Translations under genes and position numbers: made by a program
Shown: positions 1-35,422 of the stretch, in pieces
How positions within the stretch are numbered: the stretch's first letter is position 1
Layout of the letters: each line of letters begins with the position of its first letter
The notes under the pieces: generated by a model
The model's input: the letters and a program-made list of their open reading frames with translations, nothing else
What the model was told of the DNA's origin: nothing
Databases searched by the model: none
NCBI GenBank assembly: GCA_964556685.1
Contig: CAZKWX010000003.1
Coordinates: forward strand, 78-64,077
Direction of reading: 5' to 3'
Length of the DNA: 64,000 nt
Origin: an uncultured Bdellovibrionales bacterium
Lineage (GTDB): Bacteria > Patescibacteriota > Minisyncoccia > Moranbacterales > DUUL01

Positions 1-510
1 TTGCAACCTACGGTAAAAACCGTAGCCGCCACTTTGCCCGGATAATCGATTAAGGTTAATTTTTGCAGTCCTCCAATCTTCATGAAGTTCTTTACTAATT
101 ATCCCGCGAAGCGGGATCTCGGTGTGCGGGACTAATCAAATACAAATATACGAATCAATAAACTCTGCCATAGTGTCATCCCGGACTTGATCCGGGATCC
201 AGTGTCTATTCGTATATTCGTACACAATTCGCCTGTCCTCCGTAGCTCATCAGAGCGTAGGATGAGTAATCCGTAATATGCAAAACAAAAAGCTCCAGGT
301 TCCCCCAAAGCCATGAGCGAATTTTGAAATATAATTCTTCAGCACAAGTTAAGCACGTTCCTATTGAGATTAATGGCAATTTCCCGCAAGTAAGATATTT
401 TTGACACCGCAGAGAAACAAAGTGGATCGTTTAGCAAAAATATTTTACTTGTGGGAAACCAAACATAGAACGTGAAGTCTTTTTTTCAAATTAAAAAATA
501 ATCTAATAAT

Positions 511-2838
511 CTATCCCCATTTGTCTCTCTCCTTCTGATCTTTCTCATCATCTTTATACCCAACTTTCTCTTCTTTTAATTCAGCTCCCACCAAAACTTC
601 CCTTGGCTTAGACCCATCCGGCGGTCCCACCACCCCATTTTCTTCCAGCATGTCAATAATTCGAGCAGCTCGAGAATAGCCAATGCTCAAACGACGCTGC
701 AGCATCGAAGTTGATGCTTTTCGCGCTTGGATCACCAATTCCTTGGCTTGCCCATAGAGCTCATCATCCTTATTTCCCTCGGTTCCAGGACCACTGAAGA
801 TTCCTGTATCACTATCCAGTTGCTGTTCTAATGATTCAGACAAATTCTCATCTTCATCAAATTTGAGATGCTTAGTTTGCTTCCTAATAAACTTAACTAA
901 CTTTTTAACCTCAGTTTCTGAAATGAATATTCCTTGAATTCTTCGAGGCCGAGCCGATTCAGCATTGATATAGAGCATATCACCATTGCCCAAAAGCTTT
1001 TCTGCTCCTGCCATGTCCAGAATGGTTCGTGAGTCAATCTGAGTGGCTACTTGGAAAGCCACTCGGGTGATGATGTTGGCTTTAATCAATCCAGTAATCA
1101 CTTCCACTGATGGTCGCTGAGTGGAAACAATCAAATGAATTCCCACCGCTCGAGCCATTTGAGCCAATCTCACGACCAATCCTTCCACGTCACGACCATG
1201 AGCAGCCATCAAATCTGCTAGTTCGTCAATCACAATCAAAATGTAGGGCATTTTTTCTGGTTTTTCTCCATTCTTTCCATTTCCATTGCCATTTTTCATA
1301 CTGGCCACTTTGTCATTATAGGAATGAATGTCCCTTGAGCTCATATCTTGAAGCACCTTGTATCTTCTCTCCATTTCTCCCACTGTCCACTTCAAGGTTC
1401 GCACTACTTTGTTCATGTCCACAATCACTGGCGTGAGCAAATGAGGAATGTCATTGTAGATTGAAAGCTCCACTCGCTTGGGATCAACCAGAATCAATCG
1501 AAGATCTTCGGGTGAGTTTTCATGAAGCAGAGTGCAAAGAATTGAATTAATATTGACACTCTTTCCAGTGTTAGTCGAGCCAGCAATTAAGAGATGAGGC
1601 ATCTTGTCAATATTAGCCAAAATCGGATGGCCGTTAACATCCTCACCAAGAATAATGCTCAACTTGGAAGGACGATTCTTGTAGACGTCGCTTTCCAGCA
1701 TGGAACGCATCCGAACAATTGATTTGGATTTGTTGGGCACTTCCACGCCTACCAGTGACTTTCCTGGAATGGGAGCTTCGATTCGAATGGCTGAGGCCGC
1801 TAAGGCGAGAGCTAAATCATTTTGAAGAGCCACGATTCGACTGAGTTTTACTCCCACGGCTGGTTTGAAGGTGTATTGGGTAACTGTTGGTCCAATGTGA
1901 TATTCACTGGGAGCTACTTCGATTCCAAAATTTCCCAATGTCTTTTTTATTATTTCAACATTTTCTTCTAAGTTTCCTTGATGAGGACGCTCTTTATTTT
2001 TTTCAAAAATTTCAATCGGCGGTTTCTTCCATCTTGAACCAGAATAGATATTTTTCTTAACTCTAGCTGAGTCGGAAAGACCCGCTCCCACAGCCGGTGC
2101 CACGGCTTTCTTTTTTTCATCGTCCTCTGCTCCTTCTGGTCCTTCAACAAACTGAATTGTATCTAACCTGATATTGTCTTCATCCTCCACTTTTTCTGGC
2201 ACTTCTTTTTCTTCTTCTGTTGAAGGTCCTTCAACAAATTTGTCTTTTTCCTCTGGCATTTCTTTTTTAATTCTTCCTCTCAGTCGATCCCACAAGGCAT
2301 GCAGGGGCGCATTGAAAATCAGCATCATACCAATCAAAAGAAAACCAAAGAGAATAATCACGGCTGCTATTTTTCCCAAGAATTTTGCCAGCGGATAGGC
2401 TACAGCTAGCCCTAAGAAACCACCGTCCTGACCTTGTTTGGCTGAGTCGATCATCAGATCAACGTCTTGAAACACGTGAGCCAATCCCAAAAACATAATT
2501 AGGAAAATAAATCCACCAACTGCTGCAAGAGTGTAGCGAATTGGTTCCATTTTTCGAAAATACATAATTCCCACCAAGATCATAACCAACGGCAAGAGAT
2601 ATCTCCCCCAGCCAGCCAAATAGGCCAGGCCTTGATCCGTTTTTTCGCCCACCATCCCGGCTTTGTGAATGAGACTCAGAAGAAATACACAAGCCAGCAT
2701 CACCAGTATAACCGCAACGATGCTTTTTTTGACATCCCGACTCAGACCATTTTCTTCATTCCCATTCTTTTTACCTCTTTTCCCTTTCTTGCCCTTTTTC
2801 TTCTTGTCTTTTTTAGTTTCTTTTTTCTTTCTTGGCAT
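511..2838 (-). CDS. ftsK: DNA translocase FtsK/SpoIIIE
   Basis: 775 aa; Lys-rich N-terminus, four TM segments, C-terminal motor domain with Walker A GSTNTGKS and FtsK gamma-like tail; stop TAG. Confidence 0.9.
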   Translation of the reverse strand: MPRKKKETKKDKKKKGKKGKRGKKNGNEENGLSRDVKKSIVAVILVMLACVFLLSLIHKAGMVGEKTDQGLAYLAGWGRYLLPLVMILVGIMYFRKMEPIRYTLAAVGGFIFLIMFLGLAHVFQDVDLMIDSAKQGQDGGFLGLAVAYPLAKFLGKIAAVIILFGFLLIGMMLIFNAPLHALWDRLRGRIKKEMPEEKDKFVEGPSTEEEKEVPEKVEDEDNIRLDTIQFVEGPEGAEDDEKKKAVAPAVGAGLSDSARVKKNIYSGSRWKKPPIEIFEKNKERPHQGNLEENVEIIKKTLGNFGIEVAPSEYHIGPTVTQYTFKPAVGVKLSRIVALQNDLALALAASAIRIEAPIPGKSLVGVEVPNKSKSIVRMRSMLESDVYKNRPSKLSIILGEDVNGHPILANIDKMPHLLIAGSTNTGKSVNINSILCTLLHENSPEDLRLILVDPKRVELSIYNDIPHLLTPVIVDMNKVVRTLKWTVGEMERRYKVLQDMSSRDIHSYNDKVASMKNGNGNGKNGEKPEKMPYILIVIDELADLMAAHGRDVEGLVVRLAQMARAVGIHLIVSTQRPSVEVITGLIKANIITRVAFQVATQIDSRTILDMAGAEKLLGNGDMLYINAESARPRRIQGIFISETEVKKLVKFIRKQTKHLKFDEDENLSESLEQQLDSDTGIFSGPGTEGNKDDELYGQAKELVIQARKASTSMLQRRLSIGYSRAARIIDMLEENGVVGPPDGSKPREVLVGAELKEEKVGYKDDEKDQKERDKWG

Positions 2839-2878: not shown

Positions 2879-5536
2879 TTATTTTCTAATTAAAAATCTT
2901 CTTTTGAAAAATTCAAATATGAAGATTTCAACAAAGGCCAGCGAAATAATTAACACCCAGCTGGCTGAACTAATGGGTACAGTTTTCAAAAATCCCTGAA
3001 GCAGAGGAAGATAGATTGCCAAAACTAAAAGCAGGGCGCTGGCCAGCACAGCAGCATTCAAATACCAGTTGGAGAAAATATTTTTTCGAAAAATTGATTT
3101 TTTGAGTGATCGAACTGAATAGGCAAAAATTAGTGAATCGAACGCCATCAGAGCTAGAATCATGGTTCTGGTTTTTTCAATGTCCCCTGTAGTTTTCCAA
3201 ACAAACCAGAAAAACAAAAAAGTGATGATGCCATTGATGGCGAAAACCGAAATGACCCATTTCTTGATTGGTTTACTCAAAATCGGCTCTTTGTTGCCCC
3301 GTGGTTTTTCCTCCATCACGCCTGTTTTTTCATTTTCAGTCGTCAAAGCAATATCAGGCAATCCGTCTTCAATTAAATTGATCCACAAGATTTGAACAGC
3401 TAAAAGCGGCAAAGGCAACCCCAAAAACATAGCTCCCAAGAAAATAAATATCTCAGTGAAATCATCAGCCACCAAATATATGAATACTTTTCGAATGTTA
3501 TCAAAAGCTACTCTTCCTTGTTCCACTGCCTTGACAATTGTTTGATAGCTATCATCGAGCAAAATCACATCAGCCACTTCCTTAGCCACATCAGTGCCAC
3601 TGCCCAGAGCCACTCCCACATCTGAAGCTTTCAGGGCTGGAGCGTCATTGACTCCATCCCCGATCATGGCCACTGACTCTCCTCCTCTTTGCAGAGCTTT
3701 AACAATCCTAAGTTTGTGTTTGGGAAGCGTGCGAGCATAGAGAGTTGTTTTTTTAGCTGAATTCCTGAGCTCGGCTTCACTCAGTTTTTCTAATTCATCA
3801 CCTTCAAGAATGTGATTTTTTTGAATATTAATTCCCGCTTCTTGAGCGATTGTCTTAGCCGTCAATTGATGATCGCCAGTGATAATTATCGGACGAACTC
3901 CTGCTCGAGTAATTTTTTTAATGGCCTTTTTTGCGTCATGTCGAATTGGATCTTGAAGGGCCAAGAAACCAACGAAATTTAAATCTGTTGCTAACTCAGA
4001 AATGCTATTTAACTTTCCATTGTTGTCTAAATTTTTCTCGGCACAAGCCACCACTCGGAAACCTTCTTTGGCAATCCGTTCAAGTATTCTCTTGCCATCT
4101 TTCTCTTCATGTTCTCTAAAACCTATGCTCCCATCTGAAACAGAATATTTGGATGATCGTTTGAATATTTCTTCGGGAGCTCCAGCGACAAACAATTTTT
4201 TGTTTTCCCCTCTTCGGCAAAGAGTGGCGGCAAACTTTCGATCTGAGTCAAAGTTCCACTTATTGATAATATTACATTCTCTTTTGAGCTTTTCAATCTT
4301 CAAACCTGCTTGAGTAGCCGAAAGCAACAGAGCCTTGTCCGTATATCGACCTCTCACTGTCCATTTCCTTTCTTCTTCATGAAAATTTTCGATGTAGGCA
4401 TCGTTGGTTACCGTAGCTATTTTGATGATCTTCAGTTCCTGAGCTGAATAGGCAGACGGATCATTTGGGTTGAGTATGGTTGTCTTGTCCAGCAAGCTTT
4501 TCTTATGTCCCACTATTTGGGTCACTCTCATTTGTCCTTCGGTGAGGGTTCCTGTTTTGTCAGCACAAATCACTGTCACTCCTCCCAAACTTTCAGCAGC
4601 CGAAAGTTTTTTGACCACTCCTTTGCTCTTGAGAACTCTTCTCATGGCCAACACCAAAACCACAGTTATAGCTGGCAACAACCCCTCTGGAATTGATGAA
4701 ACTGAAAGCGCCAAGGCAGAAAGAAAAATTTGTTCAATGTTCTGATTGGAAAAATAACCGGCAATGATAATCACGATTACCAGCAAGAGTATGAAAATTC
4801 CGATCAGCTTGGAAAGCTTGAGAATTTTTCTTTGCAAGGGGGTAGAAGGCTCTTTGGTTTCCTTCAAAAGCTTCACCGTTTGACCAAATTCAGTCCTTTC
4901 GCCTGTCTCCACCACCACAGCCTCGGCTTGTCCTTGGGTGACAGCAGTACCGGAAAAAACCATGTTAGACTTTTCAACCAATTTCGCCTCCCGAGAAACA
5001 ACTTTTTCATCCTTTTTAACTGGCAGAGATTCGCCCGTTAAAGTCGATTCATCAGTTCGGAGATTTCTTGAAGTAATTATTCGAGCATCAGCCGCGATGC
5101 GGTCTCCTTCTTTGATGATAACAATGTCACCAGGTACCAATTGGCTACTATCAATTTCCTTTTCGTTGTTTCCCCTTCTCACTCTGACTTTAATCCTCAC
5201 CATTTTGTGAAGCTCGTTTAATGATCGGTTGGCCTTCATCTCCTGATAGAAACCAACTGTGGTGTTGATCAGAAGAACTACTAGAATGAAAATCGAGTCA
5301 GCATAGTGTCTGAGCAAGAATGAAATGATGATAATAATTAGCAAAACATAGACCAGAGGGTTTCTAAATTGACGCAAAAAAACAGTCAACTTAGACAGTG
5401 ACTTTTTTTTAGGAATTTCATTGCGGCCATGTTTCTCCAATCTCTCCCTTATTTCAATCTTGCTTAGCCCTTTTTTGTCAGATCCAATTCTTTTTAACAC
5501 TTCAGCCGCATCAATTGCGTGCCAATTTTTCTGCAT
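2879..5536 (-). CDS. Cation-transporting P-type ATPase (P2/P3-type, Ca2+/Mg2+-like)
   Basis: 885 aa; DKTGTLT phosphorylation motif, PEGL TM4 motif, GDGVNDAPALK hinge motif, about 10 TM segments. Confidence 0.85.
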   Translation of the reverse strand: MQKNWHAIDAAEVLKRIGSDKKGLSKIEIRERLEKHGRNEIPKKKSLSKLTVFLRQFRNPLVYVLLIIIIISFLLRHYADSIFILVVLLINTTVGFYQEMKANRSLNELHKMVRIKVRVRRGNNEKEIDSSQLVPGDIVIIKEGDRIAADARIITSRNLRTDESTLTGESLPVKKDEKVVSREAKLVEKSNMVFSGTAVTQGQAEAVVVETGERTEFGQTVKLLKETKEPSTPLQRKILKLSKLIGIFILLLVIVIIIAGYFSNQNIEQIFLSALALSVSSIPEGLLPAITVVLVLAMRRVLKSKGVVKKLSAAESLGGVTVICADKTGTLTEGQMRVTQIVGHKKSLLDKTTILNPNDPSAYSAQELKIIKIATVTNDAYIENFHEEERKWTVRGRYTDKALLLSATQAGLKIEKLKRECNIINKWNFDSDRKFAATLCRRGENKKLFVAGAPEEIFKRSSKYSVSDGSIGFREHEEKDGKRILERIAKEGFRVVACAEKNLDNNGKLNSISELATDLNFVGFLALQDPIRHDAKKAIKKITRAGVRPIIITGDHQLTAKTIAQEAGINIQKNHILEGDELEKLSEAELRNSAKKTTLYARTLPKHKLRIVKALQRGGESVAMIGDGVNDAPALKASDVGVALGSGTDVAKEVADVILLDDSYQTIVKAVEQGRVAFDNIRKVFIYLVADDFTEIFIFLGAMFLGLPLPLLAVQILWINLIEDGLPDIALTTENEKTGVMEEKPRGNKEPILSKPIKKWVISVFAINGIITFLFFWFVWKTTGDIEKTRTMILALMAFDSLIFAYSVRSLKKSIFRKNIFSNWYLNAAVLASALLLVLAIYLPLLQGFLKTVPISSASWVLIISLAFVEIFIFEFFKRRFLIRK

Positions 5537-5684
5537 TTATTTTTATTTTGCTTGTTCAGCGAGCTAAATAAAATGGTGTTAACCCCAGAGCAAGCTCTCG
5601 ACTCTTATTCCGCAGCAAGCTACAAGGAATTAAGCCAACAATTTGTCCTTCGTAGTCCCGACGTAACGTCGGGACGAAGTAGGA

Positions 5685-6239
5685 TCAAACTATCTCCTCA
5701 CCTTTTCTCCAAATCAACCAATATTTATTTTTGTCTTTCGTTTTCTTTTCCTCCTGCTCGTCTTCAATCAGATGTTTTTGAGAAAATTTTTTTTGTTTAT
5801 TATTAAAGCCTTTGGTCAAGATCATAATGTAGCGACCTTTGACTTTTTCGCCCAAAAGATTGAAAGACAGTTTTCCTTCTTCGAATGATCCATTGATCAT
5901 GCCCCATTTTCCTTCGTCCCAAATTTCCACCGTTCCGGCACCATAGTTGCCTTCAGGAATTTCTCCTTCAAAATCAACATAGTCCACTGGATGATCTTCT
6001 GTTTGAATCGCTAGATGTTTGATTTCCTTGGTCAGAGGCAAGTTCTTAGGAACTGCCCACGATTTGAGCACCACTTTGCCATTCTTCTCATCTTTCATTT
6101 CAAGCCGAAAATCATAGTGCAGATGTGATGCATCGTGTTTTTGAATCACAAACCTCTGTTCCGAAGTCTTTCTGGCAGCGGGCTTCGGTTCTTTTGTCTC
6201 CTTAAAATTGCGTTTGAGCCGATATTGAATTAAGCTCAT
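5685..6239 (-). CDS. LigD-type 3'-phosphoesterase (PE) domain protein, stand-alone
   Basis: 184 aa; HLHYDFRLE motif and beta-rich core typical of the LigD PE / DNA polymerase-ligase N-terminal domain. Confidence 0.6.
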   Translation of the reverse strand: MSLIQYRLKRNFKETKEPKPAARKTSEQRFVIQKHDASHLHYDFRLEMKDEKNGKVVLKSWAVPKNLPLTKEIKHLAIQTEDHPVDYVDFEGEIPEGNYGAGTVEIWDEGKWGMINGSFEEGKLSFNLLGEKVKGRYIMILTKGFNNKQKKFSQKHLIEDEQEEKKTKDKNKYWLIWRKGEEIV

Positions 6240-7589: not shown

Positions 7590-8396
7590 ATGGGGGAAAA
7601 GAAATCTGCTAATAAGAAGCAGGAAGAAGATCGAGCTGAAAAAATCCGATCACTTCAGGAAATGATTGCCACGGCAGAAAGAACCATCACTTCTGCCAAG
7701 GCCATGCTATCTCAAGTTCAAATCGAGGAGAAAGCATCTGGCAACGGCGCTGACTTTGGTTCAGTTGATGATTCCGATTTTGATGGTGATGGTCAAATCA
7801 TTCACGGAACTTTTGATGGACAAATTATGATCGGTGAAGATGGAAAACAATATCCGGTTCCTGCTAATTATGCTTCAAAATCAAAACTAGTCGAAGGAGA
7901 CATGCTCAAACTCACCATCACGGGTGAAGGAAATTTTGTTTATAAACAAATTGGTCCGGCTGAGCGAAAATATTTGATTGGCATTGCCAATCAAGACGAA
8001 AGAGGAAACTTTTTTGTTAAAACGGAAGATCGAAGTTATAAGGTTCTTTTGGCTGCTGCCACCTATTTCAAGATTGAAGCAGGTGACGAAGTGACGGTTA
8101 TTGTTCCCCGAGAGGGTGAAGTCACCTGGGGAGCAATTGAAAATATTGTCCGCAAAGCGTCCGATGTTCTCAGCTCTCCGGACATCAATTTGCAGTCAGA
8201 GCCAATGCAACCAAAGCTGACTGAAGAGAGCGCCAATGGAAAACCAACCGCTATTGAGAAACTAGAAAAAGAAATTGAGGACGAACGAAAGAGCGCTAAG
8301 AAAAAAGATGACATTCTCGATGAGTGGACTCCTGATATTGATCAAATGAAGAAAGAGGCCAAACAGCCAGCTGGAGCTGAAGAGGATGTTAGTTAA
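7590..8396 (+). CDS. Hypothetical acidic protein with N-terminal coiled coil
   Basis: 268 aa ORF; TTGCAT-17-TATAAT promoter-like sequence at ~7457-7490 upstream. Confidence 0.5.
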   Translation: MGEKKSANKKQEEDRAEKIRSLQEMIATAERTITSAKAMLSQVQIEEKASGNGADFGSVDDSDFDGDGQIIHGTFDGQIMIGEDGKQYPVPANYASKSKLVEGDMLKLTITGEGNFVYKQIGPAERKYLIGIANQDERGNFFVKTEDRSYKVLLAAATYFKIEAGDEVTVIVPREGEVTWGAIENIVRKASDVLSSPDINLQSEPMQPKLTEESANGKPTAIEKLEKEIEDERKSAKKKDDILDEWTPDIDQMKKEAKQPAGAEEDVS

Positions 8397-17533: not shown

Positions 17534-17670
17534 AAAAACTTTCCCAAAAGGAAAGCTTCATTCAGCATCTTTCCTCGAAAGGCTAGAGTTGGCACCTACT
17601 GAGATCAAACTCAGGGTTGCCGGCAGGTCATTGGGCTAGATCCCTATCTGCACTCTTGATGATATTTGGT
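17534..17670 (-). promoter_or_regulatory. SAM-I (S-box) riboswitch with intrinsic terminator in the metK leader
   Basis: Minus-strand ATCAAGAGTGCAGATAGGGATCTAGCCCAATGACCTGCCGGCAACC...GGTGCCAACTCTAGCC matches the S-box consensus; followed by GGAAAGATGCTGAATGAAGCTTTCC stem + UUUUGGG U-run just 5' of the metK ATG. Confidence 0.75.
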
Positions 17671-34871: not shown

Positions 34872-34957
34872 TGGTGGGCCGGGAGAGATTCGAACTCCCG
34901 TAGGCTTGCGCCGCCAGATTTACAGTCTGGTGCATTTGACCGCTCTGCCACCGACCC
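34872..34957 (-). tRNA. tRNA-Tyr (anticodon GUA), long variable arm, CCA encoded
   Basis: GGGTCGGTGGCAGAGCGGTCAAATGCACCAGACTGTAAATCTGGCGGCGCAAGCCTACGGGAGTTCGAATCTCTCCCGGCCCACCA. Confidence 0.85.
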
Positions 34958-35139: not shown

Positions 35140-35422
35140 AGCCGTTGCGCGGGGTTGAACCGCGGACCTCATCCTTCATTTACACCTCTATTTTAATTAG
35201 CACGATATTAGAGGATTAGACTGTATCTTAGACTTATCCTGAAAACACTTAGGACTTAGTCTCTCTTGTCAGTCGTTCGGGCCCTACTACGATAGTGCCA
35301 CGGTCTTGACCTCGTACCAGGCTTTTAACCGTTATTCGAGATTCACATTACTGTTTCCAATTATGTGGGCATGGACTCTTCGTCCCACCATGGATGCGCT
35401 CTACCAACTGAGCTACAACGGC
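35140..35422 (-). tRNA. tRNA-Thr (anticodon GGU) interrupted in the anticodon loop by a ~210-nt group-I-like intron
   Basis: Exon1 GCCGTTGTAGCTCAGTTGGTAGAGCGCATCCATGGT and exon2 AAGGATGAGGTCCGCGGTTCAACCCCGCGCAACGGCT form a complete cloverleaf; split after U36 gives U-ending 5' exon and G-ending intron; R/S-like elements AGAGACUAAGUCC and AAGAUACAGUCUAAUC. Confidence 0.6.

Follow-up and report, generated by a model that had tools for sequence, protein, structure and literature searches.

A tRNA-Thr(GGU) gene split after U36 by a probable group I intron of the divergent Patescibacteria tRNA-Thr family

Reinhold-Hurek and Shub are said to have described, in 1992, an intron in the tRNA-Ile of Azoarcus that lies at 36/37, after the third anticodon base, and whose P1 reportedly consists of three base pairs between the anticodon and a guide, with a U.G wobble. 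Introns termed "divergent group I introns" are known at the same 36/37 site of tRNA-Thr(GGU) in Patescibacteria (Williams 2020, bioRxiv 10.1101/2020.01.27.920355; Nakagawa et al. 2026, PMC13011429, with a bioRxiv version, 10.1101/2025.07.03.662931, dated 2025), and the tool used for their detection, tFind, dates from 2020. According to Table 1 of PMC13011429, three complete genomes of Patescibacteria (GCA_001029635.1, GCA_016700375.1, and GCA_030583745.1) have introns at 36/37 of Thr(GGU); the paper places these introns in the IA clade and also gives 36/37 as a well-characterized tRNA-Arg intron site. The in vitro splicing assays of Patescibacteria tRNA introns that it reports concern only the Asn and Asp introns at 35/36, which self-splice. 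Self-splicing of the Anabaena pre-tRNA intron is represented there by the title of Zaug et al. 1993 in the reference list (PMC13011429). The kind of intron, the host gene, the site, and the phylum considered here are already published, and the copy in our window (the whole stretch of DNA analyzed, 64 kb) is a new orthologue. A preliminary description of this DNA had called the host and position unusual, a judgment that these publications have overtaken.

The probability that the locus is a tRNA-Thr(GGU) gene whose positions U36 and A37 are separated by a group I intron of 210 nt without an ORF, a member of the "divergent" Patescibacteria tRNA-Thr family and predicted to be self-splicing, is in our estimate about 0.93. 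Exon 1 (35422-35387, minus strand) reads GCCGUUG UA GCUC AGUUGGUA GAGC G CAUCC AUGGU, and exon 2 (35176-35140, minus strand) reads AA GGAUG AGGUC CGCGG UUCAACC CCGCG CAACGGC U, where AGGUC is the variable loop; CCA is not encoded at the end of exon 2 (Table 1). Once joined, the 73 nt are called by ARAGORN as tRNA-Thr(ggt) with a perfect cloverleaf and the anticodon loop AUGGUAA. The preliminary description had recovered this cloverleaf by removing the insert, and its coordinates are correct; it had also argued that no break point in the loop other than the one after U36 leaves U as the last base of the 5′ exon together with G as the last base of the insert, which we confirmed. The gene (35422-35140, minus strand) is missed by default ARAGORN and by the Rfam tRNA model, whereas the intron-aware ARAGORN run proposed earlier returns the exact gene and insert, tRNA-Thr(ggt) c[35139,35422] i(37,210). 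The insert (35177..35386, minus strand) overlaps no ORF of at least 60 amino acids and is without a homing-endonuclease ORF. In the unconstrained minimum free energy (MFE) fold of the 283-nt precursor, which is more stable than shuffled sequences (z = -2.9), all four tRNA stems are kept.

Table 1. Window coordinates of the tRNA-Thr(GGU) exons and of the predicted intron elements
Feature	Coordinates	Strand	Description	Evidence
tRNA-Thr(GGU) exon 1	35387..35422	(-)	tRNA positions 1-36, ends in anticodon G34 G35 U36	Sequence, ARAGORN -i, intronless-orthologue alignment
Intron insert	35177..35386	(-)	210 nt, GGGACG at start, UAAAUG at end	ARAGORN -i i(37,210), family model R1 189.9 bits, covariation
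tRNA-Thr(GGU) exon 2	35140..35176	(-)	Positions 37-73, A37 A38 to discriminator U	Sequence, ARAGORN on joined exons, orthologue alignment
P1 hairpin	35368..35389	(-)	G34 G35 U36 (35389-35387) x 5′-GCC-3′ (35370-35368); U36.G35370 at 5′ splice site	
P1 extension	35385-35382 / 35376-35373	(-)	GGAC/GUCC, loop GAAGA	
P2 hairpin	35344..35367	(-)	CACAU..AUGUG, inner stem, GAAA tetraloop (L2 = GNRA)	9/9 pairs changed on both sides
P3 5′ strand	35338..35340	(-)	CUC x GAG at 35265-35263; pseudoknot with P7	99.4% of cells paired
P4-P5	35300..35332	(-)	P4 ACGGUU/GACCGU, A-rich J4/5 AAAA, P5 GCCU/AGGU, J5/4 CAA	
P6 hairpin	35280..35299	(-)	GGC(A)...(G)GCC	Pairs in 97% of cells; GG/CC replaced by CC/GG in L004 and L059
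J6/7-P7-J7/3-P3′	35263..35279	(-)	J6/7 CGAAC, P7 5′ strand GACUG 35274-35270, J7/3 ACAA, P3 3′ strand GAG 35265-35263	
P8 hairpin	35230..35262	(-)	AGACU AA GUCCU ... AGGAU A AGUCU	5/5 basal pairs changed on both sides
J8/7 and P7 3′ strand	35219..35229	(-)	J8/7 AAGAUA 35229-35224; CAGUC 35223-35219	
P9.0 and P9	35178..35216	(-)	P9.0 A35216-U35178 and U35215-A35179, enclosing P9 CCUCUA..UAGAGG 35214-35185	
omegaG	35177	(-)	Last intron nucleotide, 3′ splice site	G in 108/108 homologues

Directly 3′ of the tRNA, the segment 35060-35139 (minus strand) holds a 12-bp hairpin, CACUACUUCGCC-UU-GGUGAAGUAGUG, followed by repeated GAAGUAG motifs. This hairpin may be a processing or termination signal; the segment contains no T-run terminator, and a promoter and terminator scan gave counts at the level of shuffled sequences and no terminator. 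Three SRA assemblies contain near-identical strains whose pre-tRNA does not differ from that of the window, and these are uninformative on variation. Elsewhere in the window, a SAM riboswitch (RF00162, 58.4 bits) at 17562-17665 (minus strand) is unrelated to the tRNA-Thr intron.

The window belongs to a Patescibacteria genome, and its genomic context allows the gene to be compared with uninterrupted counterparts. Proteins named Patescibacteria group or Candidatus Moranbacteria are the closest matches of the window RpsB (60-67% identity), and the relatives L125, L126 (GCA_034522495.1), and L127, located via RpsB, have in common the order rpsB-tsf-PSP1-X-tRNA-Thr(GGU)-tRNA-Tyr-tRNA-Thr(UGU), with an uninterrupted tRNA-Thr(GGU) in 3/3. 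The window tRNA, spliced in silico, aligns without gaps to these three tRNA-Thr(GGU) sequences, the anticodon arm UCCAUGGUAAGGA being identical. From the synteny and the gapless alignment, we conclude that the window gene corresponds by orthology to a normal tRNA-Thr(GGU) into which 210 nt have been inserted precisely after position 36 and before position 37. The intronless orthologues fix the site and, together with covariation over 108 homologues, uphold the core of the preliminary description, namely, a tRNA-Thr(GGU) gene in which U36 is followed by a group I intron of ~210 nt without an ORF.

A decayed tRNA pseudogene with a non-functional insertion, the working tRNA-Thr(GGU) being encoded elsewhere, would agree with the failure of standard tRNA finders to call the gene, and the part of the genome inspected is the 64-kb window. 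However, both exons are intact and pair perfectly with each other, the locus stands at the syntenic position of a functional orthologue, and the insert is kept in 108 species with compensatory changes and almost unchanged core blocks, a pattern of strong purifying selection with compensation that is not expected of decay. The preliminary description had named an intact copy elsewhere in the genome as a sign of decay; for the window, which is the scope of this check, ARAGORN in default and intron modes found no second tRNA-Thr(GGU). In addition, according to PMC13011429, a genome with an intron-containing tRNA gene rarely has an intronless one for the same anticodon as well. We regard a pseudogene as extremely improbable and treat the locus as a tRNA gene interrupted by a group I intron.

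The size of the family was estimated by a pattern scan in which each GTDB species was represented by a single genome. The pattern ran from the D arm of tRNA-Thr(GGU) to U36 and required a nucleotide other than A at position 37; at least 120 loci matched. At least 108 distinct species-level homologues have a perfect exon 2 lying 170-230 nt downstream and the same insertion site. All of these inserts end in G (108/108), and they start with G in 90 cases, U in 17, and C in 1. Judged by record title, the hosts among the matches listed are overwhelmingly Patescibacteria (Saccharibacteria, Kaiser-, Nomura-, Wolfe-, Moran-, Vogel-, and Liptonbacteria, and others), with few hosts outside this group: a Niastella populi isolate (L026) and several metagenome-assembled genomes (MAGs) labeled Gammaproteobacteria or Bdellovibrionales. 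Identity between the window intron and those of the 107 species representatives retrieved does not exceed 74%, and the nearest of these comes from a Moranbacteria MAG (L035). Several pattern hits were set aside as non-members: L013, with a 104-nt "insert"; L077 and L091, with more than 1 kb; and L031, L060, and L099. The L013 hit (146-330, plus strand; a Halioglobus MAG) is not an intron, as position 37 is G instead of A (loop UUGGUGA) and another tRNA 3′ half follows; its 104-nt "insert" is probably a G37 tRNA followed by another tRNA.

Three members drew attention for their setting. In Niastella populi CCTCC AB 208238, a cultured Bacteroidota (NZ_LWBP01000002.1), L026:5224-5424(-) is a 181-nt family member scoring 186.8 bits with R1, the family covariance model built here for the tRNA-Thr introns, which suggests that the family has spread beyond Patescibacteria. 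An Azotimanducaceae MAG (L067, JBLHGD010000003.1) carries three intron-bearing tRNA genes within 8 kb, at 1892-2231(-), 5485-5800(+), and 7653-7954(+); these are a Leu(CAG) gene, whose intron is matched by RF00028, an Asp(GUC) gene, and a Thr(GGU) family member. At a contig end, L004:5193-5510(+) contains two copies of the interrupted tRNA-Thr(GGU) 5′ exon with the start of the intron, 259 nt apart; either a tandem duplication or a repeat arising in assembly may account for them.

The secondary structure was examined in a MAFFT alignment of the 108 sequences (A1), onto which the group I structure was projected from the window sequence and the pairs counted. Standard pairs occupy 93.1% of 5352 cells, against 30-45% when the partners are slid by 1-3 columns; the covariation score is 0.435 against 0.07-0.10, and 954 cells are changed on both sides against 148-293. 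The observed pairing values were matched by 0/500 shuffles. Compensatory changes occur in P2, P3, P5, P6, P8, P9, and P9.0, and blocks conserved in at least 90% of the sequences and mostly invariant (the guide GCC(C), GAAUCCCGAAUAACGGUUAA, AAGACCGUGG, CGAACGACUGACAAGGG, AAGAUACAGUCUA, and GGU...G at the 3′ end) alternate with variable hairpins. The elements follow the order P1-P2-P3-P4-P5-P6-P7-P3′-P8-P7′-P9.0-P9-omegaG, in which P3 and P7 cross, as in the group I topology. The analysis establishes the boundaries of the intron, its membership in the family, and a secondary structure supported by covariation, with the group I hallmarks present: U.G in P1, omegaG, P2-P9 with P9.0, the P3/P7 pseudoknot, an A-rich J4/5, and an S-box-like block at J8/7-P7.

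Two elements differ from what had been read by eye. No canonical P1 with a U.G wobble had been found in the preliminary description, and P1 is in fact present, the guide 5′-GCC-3′ reading the anticodon GGU itself over 3 bp. Its pairs (GC, GC, and UG) are invariant in 108/108, and the hairpin also appears in the MFE fold. The same description had proposed GACUA/UAGUC as P7. We rejected this candidate: GACUA (35261-35257) is the 5′ strand of P8, whose pairs covary, and the essentially invariant GACUG upstream pairs perfectly with CAGUC. With these strands, P7 is 99.8% paired, with a single mismatch in one sequence, and the block CGAACGACUGACAA in the J6/7-P3′ segment is invariant or nearly so in all 108.

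The remaining helices vary to different degrees. P3, with only 3 bp, is short for a group I intron; its consensus is CCC/GGG, with CUC/GAG in the window and in L025 and CCU/AGG in L001. P4 is invariant except for one pair (U.G or C-G), P5 covaries at 4/4 pairs, and J4/5 and J5/4 are A-rich. The J8/7-P7′ block is mostly invariant: conservation is at least 90% at position 168 and below 90% at the G of AAGAUA, and the U of CAGUC is replaced only once. This block, AAGAUA-CAGUC, matches the classical group I S box, AAGAUAUAGUC, at 10/11 positions. G35274-C35219 is presumed to be the guanosine-binding pair, and a possible A35276-U35218 pair with a bulged C35275 would presumably mirror C262-G312/A263 of Tetrahymena. 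P9 covaries at 4/5 pairs, and the two P9.0 pairs are of the types GC (75) or AU (29) and CG (65) or UA (29), the window having A-U and U-A. Pairing of AAGG in the 3′ exon with the CCCU beside the guide, as a classical P10, was considered and found no support: CCCU is unchanged in tRNAs whose 3′ exon starts with AAUGAC, and it pairs instead with the intron GGG as the P1 extension.

Other intervening sequences may be considered at this point, such as a bulge-helix-bulge intron of the archaeal type, an intron of group II, or an insertion element. The location in the anticodon loop would suit such a reading, with nothing more specific in its favor. However, group II introns and insertion sequences are far larger than this 210-nt insert without an ORF, Rfam has no match to the locus except a weak tRNA, and the fold supported by covariation has the group I topology. 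The canonical bulge-helix-bulge site is 37/38, not 36/37, and, to our knowledge, bacteria are without the bulge-helix-bulge splicing endonuclease. We give these explanations next to no credence and retain a group I intron as the identity of the insert.

The general Rfam model for group I introns, RF00028 (Intron_gpI), is silent on this family. It has no match at the gathering threshold in the window and none at E <= 10 on a 471-nt slice, where the weak tRNA match is the sole Rfam match; in 18 relatives, it matches no Thr-family intron, and its sole match, L067:1937-2207, is a different intron. The preliminary description had proposed that a missing covariance hit would count against a group I intron. 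We set this argument aside, as the structure, the covariation, and the literature point to a problem of model sensitivity: RF00028 is documented to miss the Patescibacteria tRNA-Thr(GGU) 36/37 introns, which the gpI_bact_tRNA model of tFind detects (PMC13011429), and none of its 12 seed sequences is bacterial (Williams 2020). The family model R1 matched the intron locus alone in the window, where no second copy of the intron core was found apart from one 2-mismatch match at chance level. In two relatives, the adjacent tRNA-Tyr(GUA) genes carry group I introns, 192-212 nt long and having R and S boxes of canonical form (L037:7162-7436(-) and L059:6997-7291(-)), to which R1 gives weak full-length matches (23.5 bits, E = 7e-5, in L037; 17.4 bits in L059). 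Through these matches, the divergent Thr family is connected with ordinary group I introns found in its phylum, in agreement with its published placement in the IA clade (PMC13011429). The tRNA-Tyr of the window (34872-34957) is uninterrupted.

By analogy with the characterized group I introns of Azoarcus pre-tRNA-Ile (PMC13168695) and Anabaena pre-tRNA, we infer catalysis and an order of events. The pre-tRNA would be transcribed from the minus strand, possibly together with the downstream tRNA-Tyr, and its exons would keep the acceptor, D, T, and anticodon stems. The intron would fold into P2-P9, and P1 would arise by pairing of its guide GCC with the anticodon GGU, which places U36.G at the splice site. 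The phosphodiester after U36 would be attacked by a free guanosine or GTP lodged in the P7 G-C pair; omegaG (35177), positioned by P9.0, would then take the same pocket, and the 3′-OH of U36 would attack after omegaG, which would give the 73-nt tRNA-Thr with the loop AUGGUAA and release the intron. At ligation, the exons would be held together by the anticodon stem.

The fold could also be group I-like and not autocatalytic, with a protein factor needed, with removal by an endonuclease and a ligase, or with a mainly regulatory role as a gate on tRNA-Thr maturation. The sequence is too divergent for RF00028, P3 is very short, a further layer of conformational control is suggested by an alternative pairing between the 3′ tail and L1, and the splicing assays of PMC13011429 concern Asn and Asp 35/36 introns, not the Thr family. 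Against this, the U.G, omegaG, P7 with the J8/7 AAGAUA, P9.0, and the A-rich J4/5 are all kept, with essentially no change from member to member; self-splicing in vitro is documented for related tRNA introns of Patescibacteria (PMC13011429); and no candidate splicing protein is known in the reduced genomes of Patescibacteria. We consider this reading very unlikely, and self-splicing remains our prediction for the window intron.

The alternative pairing just mentioned involves the P1 loop (usually C-N-N-A-A: CGC, CGU, or CAC, then AA), which is complementary to the last three intron nucleotides, omegaG included. It was scored in A1 between positions 15-17 and 218-220 of the window sequence, that is, window positions 35382-35380 and 35179-35177 (minus strand). 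These cells are paired in 93.6% of cases against 10-37% when slid, with 31 double-change cells overall, 28 of them GC-to-AU or CG-to-UA, and the tail state changes ~32 times on a neighbor-joining tree. By tail dinucleotide class, the loop is complementary in 50/50 sequences with GC, 15/15 with AC, 6/10 with GU, and 2/6 with AU; the pairing is perfect in, for example, L094 and L033, and in the window itself it is only partial (C-G, G.U, and an A/A mismatch). The loop-tail pairing and P9.0 must be mutually exclusive, since both use the same tail nucleotides, and each covaries separately. We found no description of this pairing in the literature searched. It is a lead, not a result, and we would only tentatively entertain, as rather unlikely, that it acts as a conformational switch holding omegaG off the guanosine pocket until step 1 or as a P10 substitute aligning the 3′ splice site. 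If true, the pairing would set the order of the two splicing steps and might tie the maturation of tRNA-Thr to the supply of GTP in these reduced genomes.

From a practical perspective, default tRNA finders and Rfam miss the gene, so that the genome would seem to be without a tRNA-Thr(GGU) and tRNA-based completeness scores would come out too low. The locus is not a discovery in itself; it is a further instance of the published group I introns that persist in single-copy tRNA genes of the extremely reduced Patescibacteria genomes. What we added is scale, with at least 108 species-level genomes carrying a Thr(GGU) 36/37 intron compared with 3 reported, as well as a secondary structure tested by covariation, including P9.0 and the correct P7, and a candidate alternative pairing between the 3′ tail and the P1 loop. 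The host range of the Thr(GGU) 36/37 intron appears wider than Patescibacteria and includes Niastella populi, which provides a culturable system for splicing tests.

Compared with the published Thr introns, the window intron has the same host gene, site, and phylum and a similar size, and RF00028 misses both. ARAGORN in intron mode miscalls the family members of L037, L059, and L067 as tRNA-Arg(gcg) with an intron at 34/35, which reproduces the miscall as Arg(GCG) 34/35 given in Table 1 of PMC13011429, whereas the window copy is called correctly. The published survey covered complete genomes only, with 3 cases, whereas our scan yielded at least 108 at the species level; one sequence in A1, L024, comes from a complete genome of Wolfebacteria (CP011209.1) and is possibly among the three already published. 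The Azoarcus pre-tRNA-Ile intron, like that of the window, is small and ORF-less, lies in the anticodon loop, and has P1 with its extension, P2-P9, P9.0, and a guanosine pocket at a P7 G-C pair (PMC13168695). It differs in its host tRNA and in its subgroup, IC, whereas the Patescibacteria Thr introns cluster with IA (PMC13011429), and the two have no detectable sequence similarity outside the universal core; self-splicing is proven for Azoarcus and predicted for the window intron. The 35/36 tRNA introns of Patescibacteria, including those in tRNA-Tyr, differ from the Thr family in that their P3 is longer and their R and S boxes, GUAGAGACUAGA and AAGAUAUAGUCC, are canonical, and they are found with RF00028, unlike the Thr family (PMC13011429). 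Nevertheless, the two groups share the phylum and the general architecture, and their P4 regions are nearly identical, GAUAACGGUGAAAG versus GAAUAACGGUUAAAG, with ACCGUGG on the 3′ side.
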